Origin: Bacteroidales bacterium
GTDB taxonomy: Bacteria > Bacteroidota > Bacteroidia > Bacteroidales > VadinHA17
DNA length: 64,000 bases
Assembly: GCA_025454795.1 (NCBI GenBank)
Contig: JALONT010000007.1
Span: forward strand, 550 to 64,549
Direction of reading: 5' to 3'
The notes under the pieces are model-generated. The model was given only the letters and a program-made list of their open reading frames with translations. It was not told where the DNA came from and ran no database searches. This document shows, in pieces, positions 21,206-34,592 of this stretch (position 1 is its first letter; every line of letters starts with the position of its first letter). The position numbers and the translations under genes are program-made.

Positions 21206-22636
21206 TTAGACTTTTAGTTTCTTTTCAATTTCGTTAATCTGGTTTCTGAAATGCTTGTCGGTATCTATAAGATTGTTGACTGTTTTGCAGGCATGCAATA
21301 CTGTTGCATGGTCTTTACCTCCGATATGCGAGCCTATGCTCGCCAGTGATGCTTTTGTGAGACTTTTTGAGAAGTACATTGATACCTGCCTTGCCTGTAC
21401 TATCTCCCTTTTTCTTGTCTTCCCCTGGATCAGATCAATCGGGATCTTATAATAGTCACACACGATTTTCTGGATATATTCAATTGTTATCTCTCTTCTT
21501 GCTGTGCTGATTAGTTTTTCAACCATCAGTCTTGCAAGGTCAAGAGTTATCTCTTTTCTGTTCAGTGTTGATTGTGCATAAAGAGATATAAGGACAGCCT
21601 CGAGTTCCCTGATATTATTTGAGATGTTGGCTGCCAGGTATTCAAAAATCTCATCAGGCAGTTCAATGCCGTCATTATAAGCTTTTTTCTTCAGGATAGC
21701 CAGACGTGTTTCATAATCCGGCCTCTGGAGATCGGCCTGAAGTCCCCATTTAAACCTGGAGAGGAGTCTCTGTTCCATTCCCTGAAGATCCACGGGTGGC
21801 TTATCGCATGTGAGTATCAGTTGTTTCCCTGACTGGTGAAGATGATTGAAGATATGAAAGAAGGTATCCTGTGTTTTTTCCTTGCCTGCAAATTCATGCA
21901 CATCATCTAGGATAAGAACATCGATCATCTGATAGAAATGGAGAAAATCATTTTTATTATTGTTCCTTACTGACTCTACAAACTGGGTTTGAAATTTATT
22001 TGCATTAACATAGAGAACTATTCTGTCAGGGTGCTTCTCTTTTACAAGTATTCCTATCGCCTGGGCAAGATGTGTTTTACCGAGTCCCGAGTCGCCGTAA
22101 ATCATGAGAGGATTGAAAGCTGTTCCTCCCGGATTATTACCGACAGCTATTCCGGCAGAGCGAGCAAGCCTGTTGCATTCGCCTTCCACATAGTTTGTGA
22201 AATTGTAATCGGGATTTAATTTAGGGTCAAAATGAACCTTTTTGATCCCAGGTATTACAAACGGATTCTTTATTGAAGGTTGGGTTACATCGAAAGGAAC
22301 CTGAACAGGTTTGTTATTAAGGTCTGTTTTATTTCTTGAAGGGTATCTGACTGTATATGGCTTACCATCAGAATAATTGGCATTCTCCATCACGACGTTG
22401 TACTCAAGCTTGGCATCGGTTCCGATCTCCCTCCTGAGGGTTTTCCTCAGAATATCAATATACTGTTCCTCAAGGTACTCATAGAAAAAAGGACTGGGAA
22501 CCTGGATGGTCAGCACATTGTTTTCAAGCTTCAAGGGGATAATCGGTTCAAACCATGTTTTGTAACTGATGGATGGAATAATATCCCTGATGATTTGAAG
22601 ACAGTTATTCCAAACGTCATGATGTGTTTTGTTCAT
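21206..22636 (-). CDS. dnaA: Chromosomal replication initiator DnaA
   Basis: GDSGLGKTHLAQAIG, LILDDVHEF, and a C-terminal DNA-binding helix (RQVSMYFSKSLT..SLASIG..GGKDHATVLHA). Confidence 0.95.
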   Translation of the reverse strand: MNKTHHDVWNNCLQIIRDIIPSISYKTWFEPIIPLKLENNVLTIQVPSPFFYEYLEEQYIDILRKTLRREIGTDAKLEYNVVMENANYSDGKPYTVRYPSRNKTDLNNKPVQVPFDVTQPSIKNPFVIPGIKKVHFDPKLNPDYNFTNYVEGECNRLARSAGIAVGNNPGGTAFNPLMIYGDSGLGKTHLAQAIGILVKEKHPDRIVLYVNANKFQTQFVESVRNNNKNDFLHFYQMIDVLILDDVHEFAGKEKTQDTFFHIFNHLHQSGKQLILTCDKPPVDLQGMEQRLLSRFKWGLQADLQRPDYETRLAILKKKAYNDGIELPDEIFEYLAANISNNIRELEAVLISLYAQSTLNRKEITLDLARLMVEKLISTARREITIEYIQKIVCDYYKIPIDLIQGKTRKREIVQARQVSMYFSKSLTKASLASIGSHIGGKDHATVLHACKTVNNLIDTDKHFRNQINEIEKKLKV

Positions 22637-22977
22637 TTATGTTGGCTATTTTAATTTTAAAGGTTAGTGACCAGTCTGATTCGTCTAGCAATATTTGTAA
22701 AAAAAAAACTTATAAACAAAACTTTTTTTACTTGATTTTCTCAAAAAAAGTATATGTTTTTAAACATCAGCAACTTATGAAAAATATTTTTTTCTGTCTT
22801 CATATCACATTCATTATCAGTCGATTATAATAATATAAATTGTTTTGTCGGTGTGCCACAATTCATTATGAGCACTTACTCAAAATTTAACAATCAGGGT
22901 ATAAAATGAGTATTATCTTGACCTTGATTTTGTTTTATTCTTCAAGATGAAGATAATCTGAATTTTATGATTTCAGA

Positions 22978-28496: not shown

Positions 28497-28943
28497 TTAT
28501 TCTGCCGCAATCTCAAAATCAACCTCTACTTTTACATCCCTGTGCAACTTAATAACAGCCTTATATTTTCCAACCTCTTTAATCTGATCCTCAGGAAGGG
28601 AAATGTTCTTTCTGTCGATATCGAATCCCTTTTCTTTAAGAGCTTCAGCAATCTGGATGGTATTCACAGAACCAAAAATCTTACCGGAGCTACTTGTTTT
28701 TGCGCCCACAACGATCTGCAGGCCTTTCATTTTTTCTGCAACTTCCTGGGCTTCCGCTTTGATCTTCTCTTCCTTATGTGCTCTTTGTCTCAGGTTTTCT
28801 GCATGCATTTTTTTTGCTGACGATGTAGCTGCAACTGCATAACCTCTCGGGATAAGAAAATTTCTTCCGTATCCGTCTTTGACATTTACCAGATCATTTT
28901 TCAGTCCAAGTTTATTGACGTCCTGTAATAAAATAATTTCCAT
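28497..28943 (-). CDS. rplI: 50S ribosomal protein L9
   Basis: MEIILLQDVNKLG..VKDGYGRNFLIP. Confidence 0.95.
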   Translation of the reverse strand: MEIILLQDVNKLGLKNDLVNVKDGYGRNFLIPRGYAVAATSSAKKMHAENLRQRAHKEEKIKAEAQEVAEKMKGLQIVVGAKTSSSGKIFGSVNTIQIAEALKEKGFDIDRKNISLPEDQIKEVGKYKAVIKLHRDVKVEVDFEIAAE

Positions 28944-28955
28944 AATCTCCCCTCC

Positions 28956-29225
28956 TTATTTTAATAGATCTGTAACGTAAGGAAGAAGTGCAATATGACG
29001 AGCTCTTTTAACAGCTTTTGCCACTTTCCTCTGATATTTAAGCGATGTACCGGTGATCCTGCGGGGCAGGATTTTTCCCTGGTCATTCAGGAATTTCTTG
29101 AGGAACTCAGGATCTTTATAATCAATATACCTGATCCTGTTCTTCTTAAAACGGCAGTATTTCTTTTTCTTGACTTCTACAGTAGGGGGAGTCAAATATC
29201 TGATTTCTGATTCGTTCTGTGCCAT
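28956..29225 (-). CDS. rpsR: 30S ribosomal protein S18
   Basis: YIDYKD...LKKF....[10 protein letters not shown]....QR.VA.AVKRAR..ALLPY. Confidence 0.95.
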
Positions 29226-29228
29226 TTC

Positions 29229-29582
29229 TTATTCCTCCTTTGTTTTACCTGATTCCTTCTGTTTTCTCTTCTTCTCTGCATATTCTACAGCAAATTTCTC
29301 CATCCTGAATGTCAGGAACCTGATGATTCTTTCATCCCGGCGATACTGAACTTCAAGTTTCTCAATAATCGGTCCCTCACCTTTGAATTCGATCAGGTAA
29401 TAGAAGCCTGTCGACTTTTTCTGAATGGGATAGGCCAGTTTTTTCAGGCCCCAGTTTTCTTCATGAACGATCTCACCCGTATTGTCGGTGATGATCTTCT
29501 TGAACTTTTGTACCGCTTCCTTCATCTGGTTCTCAGATAAAACGGGAGTTGCAATGAAAACGGTTTCGTACTGATTCAACAT
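29229..29582 (-). CDS. rpsF: 30S ribosomal protein S6
   Basis: YETVFI..P.LSE....E.V.KF...I...GG.I...E.WG.KKLAY.I. Confidence 0.95.
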
Positions 29583-29794: not shown

Positions 29795-31546
29795 ATGGAG
29801 AACTTCATTGTTTCAGCCCGAAAATATCGTCCTGCAACTTTCGACATGGTTGTCGGACAGGATACAATAACTAATACGCTGAAAAGTGCAATTAAGAACA
29901 AACATCTGGCACAGGCTTATCTGTTCTGCGGACCAAGAGGGGTGGGCAAAACAACATGTGCAAGAATATTTGCCAAGACTATCAACTGCATAAACATACA
30001 GGAAAATGGTGAAGCCTGTGATAAATGTGAATCATGTCTCTCATTTAATACTTTGCGCTCATTTAATATACATGAGCTTGATGCTGCATCCAACAACAAG
30101 GTTGAAGATATCAGAAGCCTGAATGACCAGGTACGCATACCTCCTCAGATCGGAAAATACAGCATATATATAATAGATGAGGTTCATATGCTATCCTCAT
30201 CAGCCTTCAATGCCTTCCTGAAGACACTGGAAGAACCACCCTCACATGCGATCTTTATCCTTGCAACGACGGAGAAGCATAAAATAATCCCGACAATCCT
30301 GTCACGCTGCCAGATATTTGACTTTAACAGGATTAAAGTAGAGGCTATAGTCGCCAGGCTGATGTATGTTGCAAAAAATGAGTCTGTTACTATTGAGGAA
30401 GAAGCGCTTCATACAATAGCGCATAAAGCTGATGGTGCCTTAAGAGATGCCCTCTCCATTTTTGACCAGATGGTAAGCCTTTGCGGAAAGAAGATTATAT
30501 ATAAGGATGTTATTGAAAATCTTAATGTCCTTGACTATGAATACTATTTCAGAAGTGTCGATGCGGCTCTCAAAGGAGATGTGTCAACTGTTCTGATGAC
30601 TTTCAATGAGATCCTCGAAAAGGGATTTGACGGACATAATTTTGTGGCCGGACTCAACAACCATTTTCGCGATCTCCTGGTAAGTAAAGATGAGTCAACA
30701 CTTCGTCTTCTTGAAGCAACCCCTGCAATAAGGCAAAGGTATTTTCAGCAGGCTATAAAATGCCCTGTCGATTTTCTGTACAGTGCTCTGGAAATAGGAA
30801 GTAATTGTGATGTCTCTTATAAAAGCAGCAAGAATCCGCGGCTTCATGCTGAACTTTCACTTTTACGCCTATGCAGAATTACTGCCGGATCAGTTGAGGA
30901 AACTGAAAAAAAAAAGGCTGACAATAAACCACTGAATAAAGCTGATAATGATCTTCCTCTTCCTTCAAAGTCAGAGATTGTGCGGAATGCTGAAGATCAG
31001 GAGAAAAGAGAACCTGCAAGGCAGGAAAATATTGCAGGGAAACATACGCCTGTTATTGAGAAGGAAACCAGGTCTTTTTCGATAAGGGAAATAATTTCAG
31101 GAACAGAAGAACCTGGTGGGAAAAATATTTCGTCAGCTCCTTCGCAGAACCTGGAAAAAACAGCCTCTCCAGTTTTAAAAGCTGAACTCACAGCTGACTC
31201 CTTTGCTTCGGCTTGGAAGGAATTCACTGAAAACCTTAAAGGGGAAGGGGCAAGAATTCTGTCCATGTTCAAGACCATCAGACCGGAGATGGAAGATGAA
31301 CATACAATAAAACTCCATTTAAGCAATGCTGCTCAGAAAGATATTTTTATCCAGAACTATAGACCCAAACTCTTGAATTTTCTGGAGAATAAATTTATAG
31401 TCTCTGAACTTGAGATTGAGACAACAATAGATATTTCAGAAACAAACGAATTGCTCTACAGCGATGAACAGAAATTAAATTATCTCCAGAACAAGTATCC
31501 TGTTCTGAAAGATTTTAAGAAAACATTTAATTTGGATATTACATAA
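29795..31546 (+). CDS. dnaX: DNA polymerase III subunit tau (gamma/tau)
   Basis: ARKYRP..F..VVGQ, GPRGVGKTT, the Zn module C..C..C, IIDEVHMLS and SRCQ.F.F. The ATG at 29795 (MENFIVSARKYRP) is preferred over the listed TTG at 29774. Confidence 0.9.
   Translation: MENFIVSARKYRPATFDMVVGQDTITNTLKSAIKNKHLAQAYLFCGPRGVGKTTCARIFAKTINCINIQENGEACDKCESCLSFNTLRSFNIHELDAASNNKVEDIRSLNDQVRIPPQIGKYSIYIIDEVHMLSSSAFNAFLKTLEEPPSHAIFILATTEKHKIIPTILSRCQIFDFNRIKVEAIVARLMYVAKNESVTIEEEALHTIAHKADGALRDALSIFDQMVSLCGKKIIYKDVIENLNVLDYEYYFRSVDAALKGDVSTVLMTFNEILEKGFDGHNFVAGLNNHFRDLLVSKDESTLRLLEATPAIRQRYFQQAIKCPVDFLYSALEIGSNCDVSYKSSKNPRLHAELSLLRLCRITAGSVEETEKKKADNKPLNKADNDLPLPSKSEIVRNAEDQEKREPARQENIAGKHTPVIEKETRSFSIREIISGTEEPGGKNISSAPSQNLEKTASPVLKAELTADSFASAWKEFTENLKGEGARILSMFKTIRPEMEDEHTIKLHLSNAAQKDIFIQNYRPKLLNFLENKFIVSELEIETTIDISETNELLYSDEQKLNYLQNKYPVLKDFKKTFNLDIT
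30906..30921 (+). other. Candidate -1 frameshift / slippage site in dnaX: A10 run containing A AAA AAG, then GGC TGA in the -1 frame
   Basis: Zero-frame codons are GAA AAA AAA AAG GCT GAC (30905-30922). The -1 frame after the heptamer reads GGC TGA (30916-30921). Confidence 0.5.
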
Positions 31547-31629: not shown

Positions 31630-32142
31630 ATGTTAAGAAAAAAAGTAGAAGACATCTGCAACAGGCAGGTTGAAAGAGAAGGCTACTCTTCAAATCTATA
31701 TCTTGCTATGGCATCCTGGGCAGAGATTAACGGTTTTGCCGGAGTGGCTGAATGGCTGTATGTTCAGTCAGATGAGGAGAGACTCCACATGCTTAAATTC
31801 ATCAGGTATATAAATGAAAGAGGAGGTAAGGCTGTTATCCCGGCTTTCAAAAAGCCTCCGGTTGACTACAAAAGCGTGGAAGATCTCTTTAGAGAAGTAT
31901 TGAAGCATGAAGAATTTGTAACTGCCAGCATCAACGAGATTGTAGCAGTTACACTTGAAGAAAAAGATTTCAATACTCATAATTTTCTCCAGTGGTTTGT
32001 ATTTGAACAGGTTGAAGAGGAGGCTAGTGCCAGAGCTATTATTGACAAAATACAACTTGTTGGAAAAAACAATATGTATCAGTTCGACAGGGATATCATG
32101 AGTTTAAGAACCCCTGCTGCAAGTACTCCAGCTGCCGGATGA
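31630..32142 (+). CDS. Ferritin (non-heme)
   Basis: Ferritin-like di-iron residues are present (E..YSSNLYLAM.SW, SDEERLHMLKF, EQVEEE). Confidence 0.85.
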   Translation: MLRKKVEDICNRQVEREGYSSNLYLAMASWAEINGFAGVAEWLYVQSDEERLHMLKFIRYINERGGKAVIPAFKKPPVDYKSVEDLFREVLKHEEFVTASINEIVAVTLEEKDFNTHNFLQWFVFEQVEEEASARAIIDKIQLVGKNNMYQFDRDIMSLRTPAASTPAAG

Positions 32143-34592
32143 AAAAATATATATTAGCCTGTTCAACAATAATCATGATTCTTTCAGTTCTGCAGCTTGA
32201 TGCTCAGAATATGAAAAGCAATTCCTCTATTACCAGTGTATGCTATGCCGGTAATAAAGTGAACAGGATTTATATTCCGCCTCCTGCTAAATACTTTGAA
32301 AATAAAGATTCGAAAGGCGGAGCAACAATTAATATTATTTATACCGGGTTTACCAGCCTGAGAAAACCACCGGTGGAAAAAGCAGTAGGGATCCTTGCAT
32401 CATTGCTGCCTCCTGATGTTAACATTACTGTACTAGCTGACTGGACAACAATTACAACAGCCGGTGTCCTTGCCAATTCTACTTCTACTGGTTATTATTA
32501 CGGATCATACATCGATGCATTGAACCCTTCGGCAATCTATCCTGTTTCACTGGCTGAAAAAATTGCCGGAAAAAGCCTTAACGATGATGTAGAAGGCGAT
32601 ATTCAATTGAATATTAACAGATCCATAAACTGGTATCTCGGAACTGATGGGAAACCTACTTATCTAAAATACGACCTGGTTACTGTTGTCCTCCACGAAT
32701 TGATACATGGTCTCGGGTTTTTCGATAGTATGACCAGTGAAGGTATATACGGCTCCTATGGTATTGACTCCAGACCCCTCATTTATGATACATTTGTGGA
32801 AAACCTGGCAGGGCAGAAACTTACTGATACCCTGGTTTTTGACAATCCCTCAACCGCTCTGAAAACTGAGCTTACAGGAGGGCAGCTATATTTTAACGGC
32901 CCCCTGCTTCAAAATTATTCGCGGAAAAGAGCAAAACTATGGGCTCCTGCATATTATGATGCCGGATCAAGCATATCTCATCTCGACGATGATGATACAA
33001 CAAATACAGATAAACTTATGACACCTTATATTGACATACAGGAGGCAATTCATGATCCTGGTAAAATTACAATGTCAATTCTTGGTGATATTGGATGGAT
33101 CAATACAAGAATAATACATGTACCTCATGGCGATACAGAAGAGAACCTTACAGAATTACCTTTAAAAGCCGTTATAAAGTCCGATACAACATTTGTTAGC
33201 GACAGCGTGGGACTGGTCAGATCATTTGATGGATTTGTAACACGTGATACCGTTTTCCTGACACAAGCTGTCGCCGACACATTCATTACGACAGTTCAGA
33301 TTCCTGAGTATAACTCAAAATTTGAATATTATATATTTGTAAAAGATTGTTTTTCAAGAATATACAGATTGCCTTCTTTCACTGATACATTGAAATTCTC
33401 CGTTTATGTCGGGAAAGACACAGTCAAACCCGAGATATCGCATACCCCTATTGGATATTATTTTGAAAAGATTGATTCGGTAAGATTCTTTGCTAAAGTT
33501 TCTGATAATATCGGAGTAGATTCAGTATACGTTGAGTATATAGTAAATGAAAACGATCCATATTTTATTGGTCTTATACCTGATAGCACAGATGGGTACA
33601 GAAATGAGTTCAGTGCAAAGTCTTTATCACTTGATGGGGGAGATTCAATCAGATACAGAATAATTGCCAACGATAAAGCAAATGAAAGCAACCGGTCTTT
33701 TCTCCCGGCAACCGGATATTTCAAAGTGCCAATTGAAGACATAGAGCCTGTAGCTAAAAGCTATTCGACTGATTTCACAGATGCGTCTGAAGATTTCTTC
33801 AATTTAGGGTTTGAAATCCTGCAACCTGAAGGTTTCTCGGGGAAAGGGCTCCATACAAGACATCCCTACAAGAGTCCCGATAAAGATGGCGACAGCATAA
33901 TTTATACATCCCTCCTCAGAACACCTGTAAAATTTGATACAACAGGGATGGTAATCAGCTTTTTGGAGCTTGTACTTGTTGAACCGGGAGAGGAAAAAGC
34001 CCCGTTCGGTTCTCAGGATTTCTACGATTATGTTATTGTAGAGGGATCCGGAGATTTTGGTAATAGTTGGTTCCGGGTAGCCGATGGTTACGATTCCAGG
34101 TTTATACCATCCTGGCTGACAGCCTATAACAGCTCGATTGTGGAGAATAACTCAACTTACGTGGGAAAGGAATCGATGATGCTGAAAAACACGTTTAGTT
34201 TAGCGGAATCATCTGATATTTCTATTGGTGATACCCTGATGTTACGATTCCGTCTCTTTTCTGATCCTTATGCTCATGGCTGGGGATGGGTCATAGATGA
34301 TCTTCATATAGGGCCCCTCGTAGATGGTGTTGAAGATATCATTTATCCGCATCTTGTTATCTATCCAAATCCGGGTAATGGCCTGATAAATATCAGTAAT
34401 ATAAACGGTCCTGGTGGAAAACCTTTCAGATACAGCATTTTTAACGCTGCCGGTTATTGTTTAATGACAGGTTTTACAAGTGGAGCAGATTCAGACATTT
34501 TAAACATATCAGGGAATCCTTCCGGAATTTACTTCATTGTTCTTAATGGGAACAATGGAATCAGAGCAATTAAATACAGCCTGATTAAATAG
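32139..34592 (+). CDS. Secreted zinc metalloprotease-like protein with T9SS C-terminal sorting domain
   Basis: Signal peptide and the motif VVLHELIHGLGFFD (HExxHxxGxxD). The C-terminal ~80 aa (IYPNPGNGLINIS...GIYFIVLNGNNGIRAIKYSLIK) are a typical T9SS type A CTD. The start overlaps the ferritin stop (ATGA). Confidence 0.75.
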   Translation: MKKYILACSTIIMILSVLQLDAQNMKSNSSITSVCYAGNKVNRIYIPPPAKYFENKDSKGGATINIIYTGFTSLRKPPVEKAVGILASLLPPDVNITVLADWTTITTAGVLANSTSTGYYYGSYIDALNPSAIYPVSLAEKIAGKSLNDDVEGDIQLNINRSINWYLGTDGKPTYLKYDLVTVVLHELIHGLGFFDSMTSEGIYGSYGIDSRPLIYDTFVENLAGQKLTDTLVFDNPSTALKTELTGGQLYFNGPLLQNYSRKRAKLWAPAYYDAGSSISHLDDDDTTNTDKLMTPYIDIQEAIHDPGKITMSILGDIGWINTRIIHVPHGDTEENLTELPLKAVIKSDTTFVSDSVGLVRSFDGFVTRDTVFLTQAVADTFITTVQIPEYNSKFEYYIFVKDCFSRIYRLPSFTDTLKFSVYVGKDTVKPEISHTPIGYYFEKIDSVRFFAKVSDNIGVDSVYVEYIVNENDPYFIGLIPDSTDGYRNEFSAKSLSLDGGDSIRYRIIANDKANESNRSFLPATGYFKVPIEDIEPVAKSYSTDFTDASEDFFNLGFEILQPEGFSGKGLHTRHPYKSPDKDGDSIIYTSLLRTPVKFDTTGMVISFLELVLVEPGEEKAPFGSQDFYDYVIVEGSGDFGNSWFRVADGYDSRFIPSWLTAYNSSIVENNSTYVGKESMMLKNTFSLAESSDISIGDTLMLRFRLFSDPYAHGWGWVIDDLHIGPLVDGVEDIIYPHLVIYPNPGNGLINISNINGPGGKPFRYSIFNAAGYCLMTGFTSGADSDILNISGNPSGIYFIVLNGNNGIRAIKYSLIK

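Follow-up and report, generated by a model that had tools for sequence, protein, structure and literature searches.

A conserved A10 run at the tau/gamma boundary of a Bacteroidales dnaX gene as a candidate site of programmed slippage

Does a single dnaX gene in a Bacteroidales bacterium give rise to one clamp-loader subunit or to two? The gene lies in a 64,000-nucleotide stretch of contig JALONT010000007.1 (assembly GCA_025454795.1, positions 550 to 64,549 of the forward strand), the whole of which we refer to as the window, and it carries a run of ten A residues (A10) at the point where the shorter subunit, gamma, would be expected to end and the longer one, tau, to continue. An initial annotation of this DNA proposed that the run harbors an Escherichia coli-type site for −1 ribosomal frameshifting, and offered transcriptional slippage of the kind known from Thermus thermophilus as a second option. 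To answer the question we compared the site with its counterparts in related genomes, and we favor programmed slippage that is mainly transcriptional.

The identity of the gene is clear. The open reading frame (ORF) at 29795-31546 scores 766 bits against a cut-off of 685 for the NCBIfam equivalog PRK14971 (NF011531 equivalent), and its translation contains the Pfam families DNA_pol3_delta2 (PF13177), DNAX_ATPase_lid (PF22608) and DNA_pol3_gamma3 (PF12169). E. coli gamma/tau chains in the PDB match it with E=1e-60, and residues 4-359 are covered by the gamma structures. Domains I-III extend to about residue 363 and the proposed slippage tract forms residues 371-374 of 583, 8-11 residues past clamp-loader domain III, so that the placement of the site at the tau/gamma boundary in the initial annotation was sound. 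The gene and its products are:

29795..31546, plus strand: dnaX coding sequence, giving tau (583 aa, 66.0 kDa) by standard decoding of an A10 mRNA, from the ORF list and the NCBIfam, Pfam and PDB matches
29795..30921, plus strand: predicted gamma-like product, residues 1-374 plus Gly and a stop (375 aa, 42.2 kDa, ending ..SVEETEKKKG), from in-silico translation
30917..31546, plus strand: tau-only C-terminal region (linker and C-terminal domain), missing from the short product and conserved in 120 full-length homologues

In the frame set by the ATG at 29795 the codons at 30896-30922 read GAG GAA ACT GAA AAA AAA AAG GCT GAC. The elements in and around them, every one at the position first assigned to it, are:

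30906..30915, plus strand: A10 homopolymer run (T10 on the template strand), the proposed slippage tract
30910..30916, plus strand: A AAA AAG heptamer in the X XXY YYZ register, a possible −1 ribosomal frameshift site
30919..30921, plus strand: −1 frame TGA, reached after the one sense codon GGC (GGC TGA = 30916-30921)
30933..30935, plus strand: +1 frame TGA (CTG AAT), 5-6 codons past the run, which closes the frame of an A9 or A12 mRNA
30896..30900, plus strand: GAGGA, a Shine-Dalgarno (SD)-like motif that is probably just part of two Glu codons and no stimulator

The zero frame of the gene remains open for 210 codons past the run. The site has the two sequence features of the Thermus type, namely a run of at least nine A residues inside a single tau ORF at the tau/gamma boundary and nearby stops in both non-zero frames, and it also has the in-register A AAA AAG followed by a −1 frame stop that characterizes the E. 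coli type. A zero-frame stop right after the run, which would place it with the two-ORF genes described by Antonov et al., is absent. To obtain the products that each message would be predicted to give, mRNA variants with 8 to 13 A residues (A8-A13) were translated in silico. A10 and A13 messages give tau of 583 and 584 aa (66 kDa), while an A11 message, or a −1 ribosomal shift, gives 375 aa (42.2 kDa) ending in ..EKKKG, the terminus anticipated by the initial annotation. A9 and A12 messages give 379/380 aa (42.8-42.9 kDa) ending in ..RLTINH, a tail (..KKRLTINH) that only these messages or a +1/−2 ribosomal shift could supply.

To see how far the site is conserved we fetched 160 DNA loci, from 80 GTDB species representatives and 80 metagenome contigs, and classified these and the window with the end of domain III as the anchor. 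Bacteroidales, Marinifilaceae, Paludibacter, Flavobacteriales-like and Sphingobacteriales-like sequences are all represented; the loci from the metagenome scan are distant rather than close relatives and give breadth, not within-species polymorphism in run length. An intact dnaX with 9 to 11 A residues at the boundary was found in 97 cases (A10 in 76, A11 in 13 and A9 in 8), a split dnaX with the run at the split point in 14, and an intact tau ORF without any run of at least nine A residues in 37, including Bacteroides/Prevotella-like contigs from the human gut. Six of these gut contigs (L085, L090, L094, L097, L098 and L139) have neither an A run nor an X XXY YYZ heptamer past domain III; they share the peptide G-x-x-P-K-Q-x-I-K-P-I-F at the position of the run and appear to be without this route to a gamma product.

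Within the close clade the run is GAAAAAAAAAAG, i.e. G-A10-G, in 27 of 27 loci, with no synonymous AAG or GAG inside it. Lys codons in the dnaX genes of this clade are 32% AAG and 68% AAA, and a conserved control Lys is AAG in 11 of 17. The peptide EKKK encoded by the run is almost invariant within an otherwise variable linker among 120 homologues of 72-100% identity. Across the wider set the run is conserved at 28-100% protein identity over the probe region, and its codon phase differs between loci, being phase 2 in 63, phase 3 in 28 and phase 1 in 6 of the 97 single-ORF genes, with the encoded peptide changing between EKKK, xKKKA and KKKx. That the run is kept across codon phases with differing peptides points to a constraint on the nucleotides and not on the protein. 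Of the 97 genes, 50 have G directly after the run, 30 have C and 17 have T.

The alternative frames are constrained as well. Taking the linker of the same dnaX genes as the null, a −1 stop lies within three codons past the run in 88% of single-ORF genes (null 32%) and a +1 stop within seven codons in 87% (null 34%); 75% have both frames closed in this way, against 11% for the null. At the −1 TGA positions in 27 close-clade sequences T is found in 23, G in 25 and A in 26, and T stays in front of GA although the overlapping zero-frame residue may be P, S, T, A, Y, D or G. More distant clades also hold a −1 stop right past the run by means of other sequences, such as NNA AAA AAA AAA GCT GAN and TCA AAA AAA AAA GGA GCT AGT. 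Altogether there are 51 distinct downstream solutions, showing that the pattern has been maintained repeatedly, and given this diversity chance or pure composition is very unlikely to be its cause. The initial annotation had reasoned that a genuine site would retain the A run and the immediate −1 stop in relatives despite synonymous alternatives, and both are clearly retained.

With the dnaX site excluded, A/T runs in approximately 549 kb of ORF-like sequence from the window and loci L001-L080 number 224 at length 7, 75 at length 8, 11 at length 9 and 0 at 10 or more, compared with 85, 41, 19 and 2 in approximately 66 kb of non-ORF sequence from the same sources. Long A/T runs are depleted specifically in the coding regions of this lineage, which suggests that runs of at least 10 are costly in these genomes. 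The window itself contains only two runs of at least nine A residues, the one in dnaX (30906-30915) and an A10 at 22699-22708. The latter was considered as a second recoding site and rejected, because it is intergenic, within an AT-rich region (22637-22977) upstream of dnaA; the dnaA gene is a minus-strand ORF (21206-22636) that looks like dnaA by translation. A scan for DnaA boxes (TTATCCACA, at most one mismatch) found no cluster in 22637-22977 and no excess above the shuffled background, 26 matches being counted where 20.7 were expected.

In 13 of the 14 split loci, Flavobacterium-like loci and the pair L036 and L161 among them, the tau C-terminus is in the −1 frame, and a full-length tau ORF can therefore be read only after a shift. 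Tau is essential in E. coli. If it is as indispensable here, then a split tract without stimulators calls for a high-efficiency event. One split gene belongs to the window's own clade: L036 (4080-4170, equal to L161 1100-1190) has 85% identity to the gamma region of the window and an A10 followed by C instead of G, which makes the heptamer A AAA AAC. Translation in its zero frame ends with ..EKKNVMKDR (379 aa), while the 208 codons of the tau C-terminus are found in the −1 frame. Over 3.7 kb, L036 and L161 are 100% identical (GenBank metagenome-assembled genome (MAG) versus Logan assembly of SRR19116071); the two probably derive from the same data, and because of this identity L161 is not independent support. 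A search for gamma-length proteins in the close clade gave one true split form among 120 matches, P0128 (379 aa), which is encoded on contig L161. Four other candidates (P0125, P0136, P0143 and P0145) were rejected as split forms, as they have no frameshift tail at the run and are just shorter sequences, most likely partial ones; of the four, P0125, P0136 and P0145 were fetched. In the MFD long-read MAG loci L026, L030, L040, L052 and L056 several dnaX match lengths are not multiples of three; L026, L030 and L056, from nanopore MAGs, have frameshifts elsewhere than at the A run, and L040 and L052 have A9, not A10.

We looked for stimulators of slippage on both sides of the run. The 80 nt downstream (30917-30996) fold to −9.2 kcal/mol, weaker than shuffled sequences (z=+1.31), and RNAalifold finds 0 conserved pairs in 24 relatives, in agreement with the lack of a convincing downstream stem-loop reported in the initial annotation. 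Upstream, where a hairpin in the nascent RNA was sought, the fold of 30836-30905 is unremarkable (z=−0.2). The GAGGA had been likened to the SD-like stimulator of E. coli dnaX, and this comparison finds no support: positions −21..−12 are unconserved in 27 close relatives, SD-like 4-mers upstream of the run are not enriched (19% of relatives against a background of 13%), and Bacteroidia ribosomes are SD-blind, with the anti-SD sequestered (PMC7797042; PMC13000453). In Flavobacterium johnsoniae the SD-like element of prfB makes no contribution to frameshifting (PMC7797042; PMC13000453). In the E. coli-type cassette AAG is shift-prone through a single tRNA-Lys (UUU anticodon) that decodes it; a look at the tRNA-Lys repertoire found no tRNA gene in the window and no tRNA-Lys gene in the 160 fetched loci. 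We therefore rejected the site as a member of the E. coli-type cassette, since it has the heptamer and the stop without the SD stimulator and the stem-loop.

It is highly probable that the A10 of dnaX is a functional slippage site of some kind. Our fuller reading, to which we give a probability of roughly 0.55, is that it is a selected, programmed slippage site that allows one dnaX gene to produce two clamp-loader subunits, predominantly through transcription. RNA polymerase on the T10 template tract would form an all-rA:dT hybrid that can realign without a mismatch, and the resulting mRNA pool would contain A10 together with A11, A12 and A9 species. Messages with A10 and A13 would be translated into full-length tau (583/584 aa). 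A message with A11 would be read ..GAA AAA AAA AAA GGC TGA and yield the 375-aa gamma-like protein consisting of domains I-III only, while those with A9 and A12 would end at the +1 frame TGA after 379/380 aa. A −1 slip of the ribosome on the A AAA AAG of the unedited mRNA may add to the same 375-aa product.

Several properties of the site lead us to favor the transcriptional level. Ten A residues are conserved where the ribosome needs only seven, the run tolerates G, C or T as the next base and sits in any codon phase, and stops close the +1 frame in addition to the −1 frame. Neither an SD-like nor a stem-loop stimulator is supported, and the ribosomes of Bacteroidia are SD-blind. Finally, in the split genes full-length tau could be read only after a shift, at a tract that has no stimulators and, in L036/L161, C as the next base. 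We infer that slippage occurs, that it is mainly transcriptional and that the short product acts as gamma. Of the initial interpretation, the conserved recoding-type signal at the tau/gamma boundary stands and the E. coli-type specifics, GAGGA and a stem-loop, do not; the Thermus-type option has gained, as conserved run length, variable phase and closure of both frames are its signature.

The main competitor is E. coli-type −1 ribosomal frameshifting as the principal route, in which the ribosome slips on A AAA AAG (30910-30916), reads GGC and terminates at TGA to give the 375-aa gamma. We consider it unlikely, though it is the strongest of the alternatives. The heptamer is correctly in register and a −1 stop comes at once; the run is followed by G in the window and in 27 close relatives (AAG being optimal); of the two stops, the −1 stop lies closer and shows the tighter conservation; 13 of 14 split genes carry tau in the −1 frame; and a bare dnaX heptamer shifts at ~14-16% in vitro (bioRxiv 10.1101/2025.10.02.679949). 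However, seven bases would suffice for this route, and 76 of the 97 genes keep ten. In 47 of 97 the heptamer ends in C or T, both of which perform poorly at the Z position in E. coli (PMC5009743). The +1 frame is closed as well (87% versus 34%). The missing SD-like element and downstream stem-loop also count against it, as do the absence of SD pairing in Bacteroidia and the silent prfB element of F. johnsoniae (PMC7797042, PMC13000453), and split genes such as L036, with A AAA AAC and no stimulators, would be expected to yield little tau by this means. A second possibility is that there is no recoding, the run being a Lys-rich patch of a low-complexity linker in an AT-rich genome with out-of-frame stops that are compositional. 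The genome is 39.5% GC with AAA as the preferred Lys codon (68%), out-of-frame stops are common (0.32 for a −1 stop within three codons in the null) and 37 related loci lack the run. Against this, exact run length is conserved across 28-100% protein identity, phase shifts alter the peptide and keep the run, T before GA persists under a changing amino acid, closure of both frames reaches 75% against an expected 11%, runs of at least 10 are otherwise absent from coding-like sequence, and splits fall exactly at the tract, so that we regard this explanation as very improbable. The tract could also be hypermutable at the DNA level, with replication slippage or phase variation producing run-length heterogeneity in the population that supplies gamma-only alleles. 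Long homopolymers are mutation hot spots, and A9, A10 and A11 variants as well as split genes do occur among the relatives. If tau is as essential here as it is in E. coli, a cell carrying a frameshifted allele would still depend on slippage at the level of RNA or ribosome; phase variation is normally found in contingency genes and not in core replication genes, and A10 is strongly modal rather than one of a broad distribution of lengths. Of all the explanations this seems to us the least credible.

Mainly transcriptional slippage has points against it too. Every A10 run also holds an in-register A AAA AAN heptamer, and since −1 frameshifting gives an identical 375-aa product, sequence alone cannot separate the two levels; the G next to the run, present in the window and in 50 of 97 relatives, fits some ribosomal contribution. 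In AT-rich organisms the polymerase may be resistant to slippage on A9, as Baranov et al. (2005, PMC1088944) caution, and this genome has a GC content of 39.5%; the depletion of runs of at least 10 in coding sequence argues that slippage still matters in these genomes despite that warning. About a quarter of the sampled Bacteroidota, the 37 loci mentioned above, are without any run, so gamma is not universally needed. The locus counts are not phylogenetically independent. Some of the split genes derive from nanopore MAGs in which other frameshifts occur (L026, L030 and L056), so the splits in L040 and L052 may be homopolymer errors, and as such errors are a plausible cause, calls of split dnaX from long-read MAGs need care.

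A broader proposal can be made more tentatively, and we hold it to be somewhat less probable than our reading of the window itself: that a bare A10 without stimulators sets the tau:gamma ratio at transcription across much of Bacteroidota, and in Chlorobi, with an efficiency high enough for single-base indels to flip genes between tau as the standard product with gamma by slippage and the reverse. If true, no cellular case of programmed transcriptional slippage would be more widespread than dnaX, and this would be a two-product route suited to ribosomes that are unable to use SD-type frameshift stimulators. Should slippage be confirmed, annotated Bacteroidales genomes miss a second protein of an essential pathway, the 375-aa gamma clamp-loader subunit, and a split dnaX in a related MAG should not be taken for a pseudogene or an assembly error. 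Confirmation would also extend the Thermus mechanism to a large and ecologically important phylum whose ribosomes cannot use an SD-type stimulator. The paired one-ORF and two-ORF architectures provide a natural readout of slippage efficiency, and the dnaX A10 is a site at which long-read homopolymer "corrections" could damage real biology.

The tau-only linker contains one further conserved element. Approximately 13 residues past the slippage site is a motif, (L)P(L)PSKSEIIR, which in the window is LPLPSKSEIVR (30953-30985, DnaX residues 387-397). It is strongly conserved in an otherwise variable region, with P390 invariant and S391, S393, E394 and R397 at 90% or more in 22 sequences, and would belong to tau only and not to the short product. 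By eye from the translations, dnaX is flanked upstream (28497-29582, minus strand) by a divergent rpsF-rpsR-rplI-like operon and downstream (31630-34592, plus strand) by a ferritin/Dps-like ORF and an 817-aa secreted protein with a C-terminal sorting-domain-like tail.

How does the site compare with known systems? Neither the class of mechanism nor the A10 tract in this superphylum is new to the literature. In 2013 Antonov et al. (PMC3711429, Suppl. Fig. S3) described two-ORF dnaX genes with A10 in F. johnsoniae, F. psychrophilum, Cytophaga hutchinsonii, Capnocytophaga, Chlorobi and Coraliomargarita, and predicted transcriptional realignment for them (PMC3711429). The initial annotation's view that such recoding is not established for Bacteroidota holds in so far as our literature search found no experimental study of Bacteroidota dnaX recoding, with Antonov 2013 the only work found; it overlooked that A10 in split Bacteroidota dnaX was reported in 2013 (PMC3711429). 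The same search found no description of the single-ORF A10 form in Bacteroidales, a form that is invisible to frameshift-finding programs and is not described in Antonov et al. 2013 (PMC3711429). The window shares with the Antonov-type genes the A10 tract, its position in the gene and the superphylum, and their form was recovered in 14 of our fetched loci. In those genes a zero-frame stop just past the run makes gamma the standard product with tau made by a shift, whereas in the window tau is standard and gamma would arise by the shift. At an efficiency near 50% a single-base change can swap the standard product (Atkins et al. review, PMC5009743), and the mixture of one-ORF and two-ORF architectures among the relatives fits this idea.

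The dnaX cassette of E. coli, Salmonella, Neisseria and Vibrio (Recode; PMC5009743) has the identical in-register A AAA AAG, one extra codon and UGA in the −1 frame, and the predicted outcome is alike, a gamma without the C-terminal domains of tau. The E. coli run, however, is only 6 A residues long and owes its 50% efficiency to an SD-like element upstream and a stem-loop downstream, neither of which is conserved here, and the site is ~60 residues further into the protein (codons 428-430) than that of the window. In T. thermophilus dnaX the sequence GAG A9 GCC TGA, with stops in both frames, is a proven case of transcriptional slippage (PMC1088944, PMC5009743; sequence from PMC3711429 Suppl. 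Fig. S3), credited to Larsen et al. 2000 as summarized in PMC1088944 and PMC5009743. The Thermus type is further marked by an mRNA pool of mixed A-run length and by tau and gamma in similar amounts. The window differs in having A10 and not A9, in belonging to a different and AT-richer phylum, and in being known from sequence alone. It resembles the Thermus gene in its single tau ORF, in the A run at the tau/gamma boundary, in the stops near the run in both non-zero frames and in having no need of ribosomal stimulators. Locally, too, the sequences are close, as GAG A9 GCC TGA in Thermus corresponds to a clade consensus of GAA A8 AAG CCT GA and to G A10 G GCT GA in the window.

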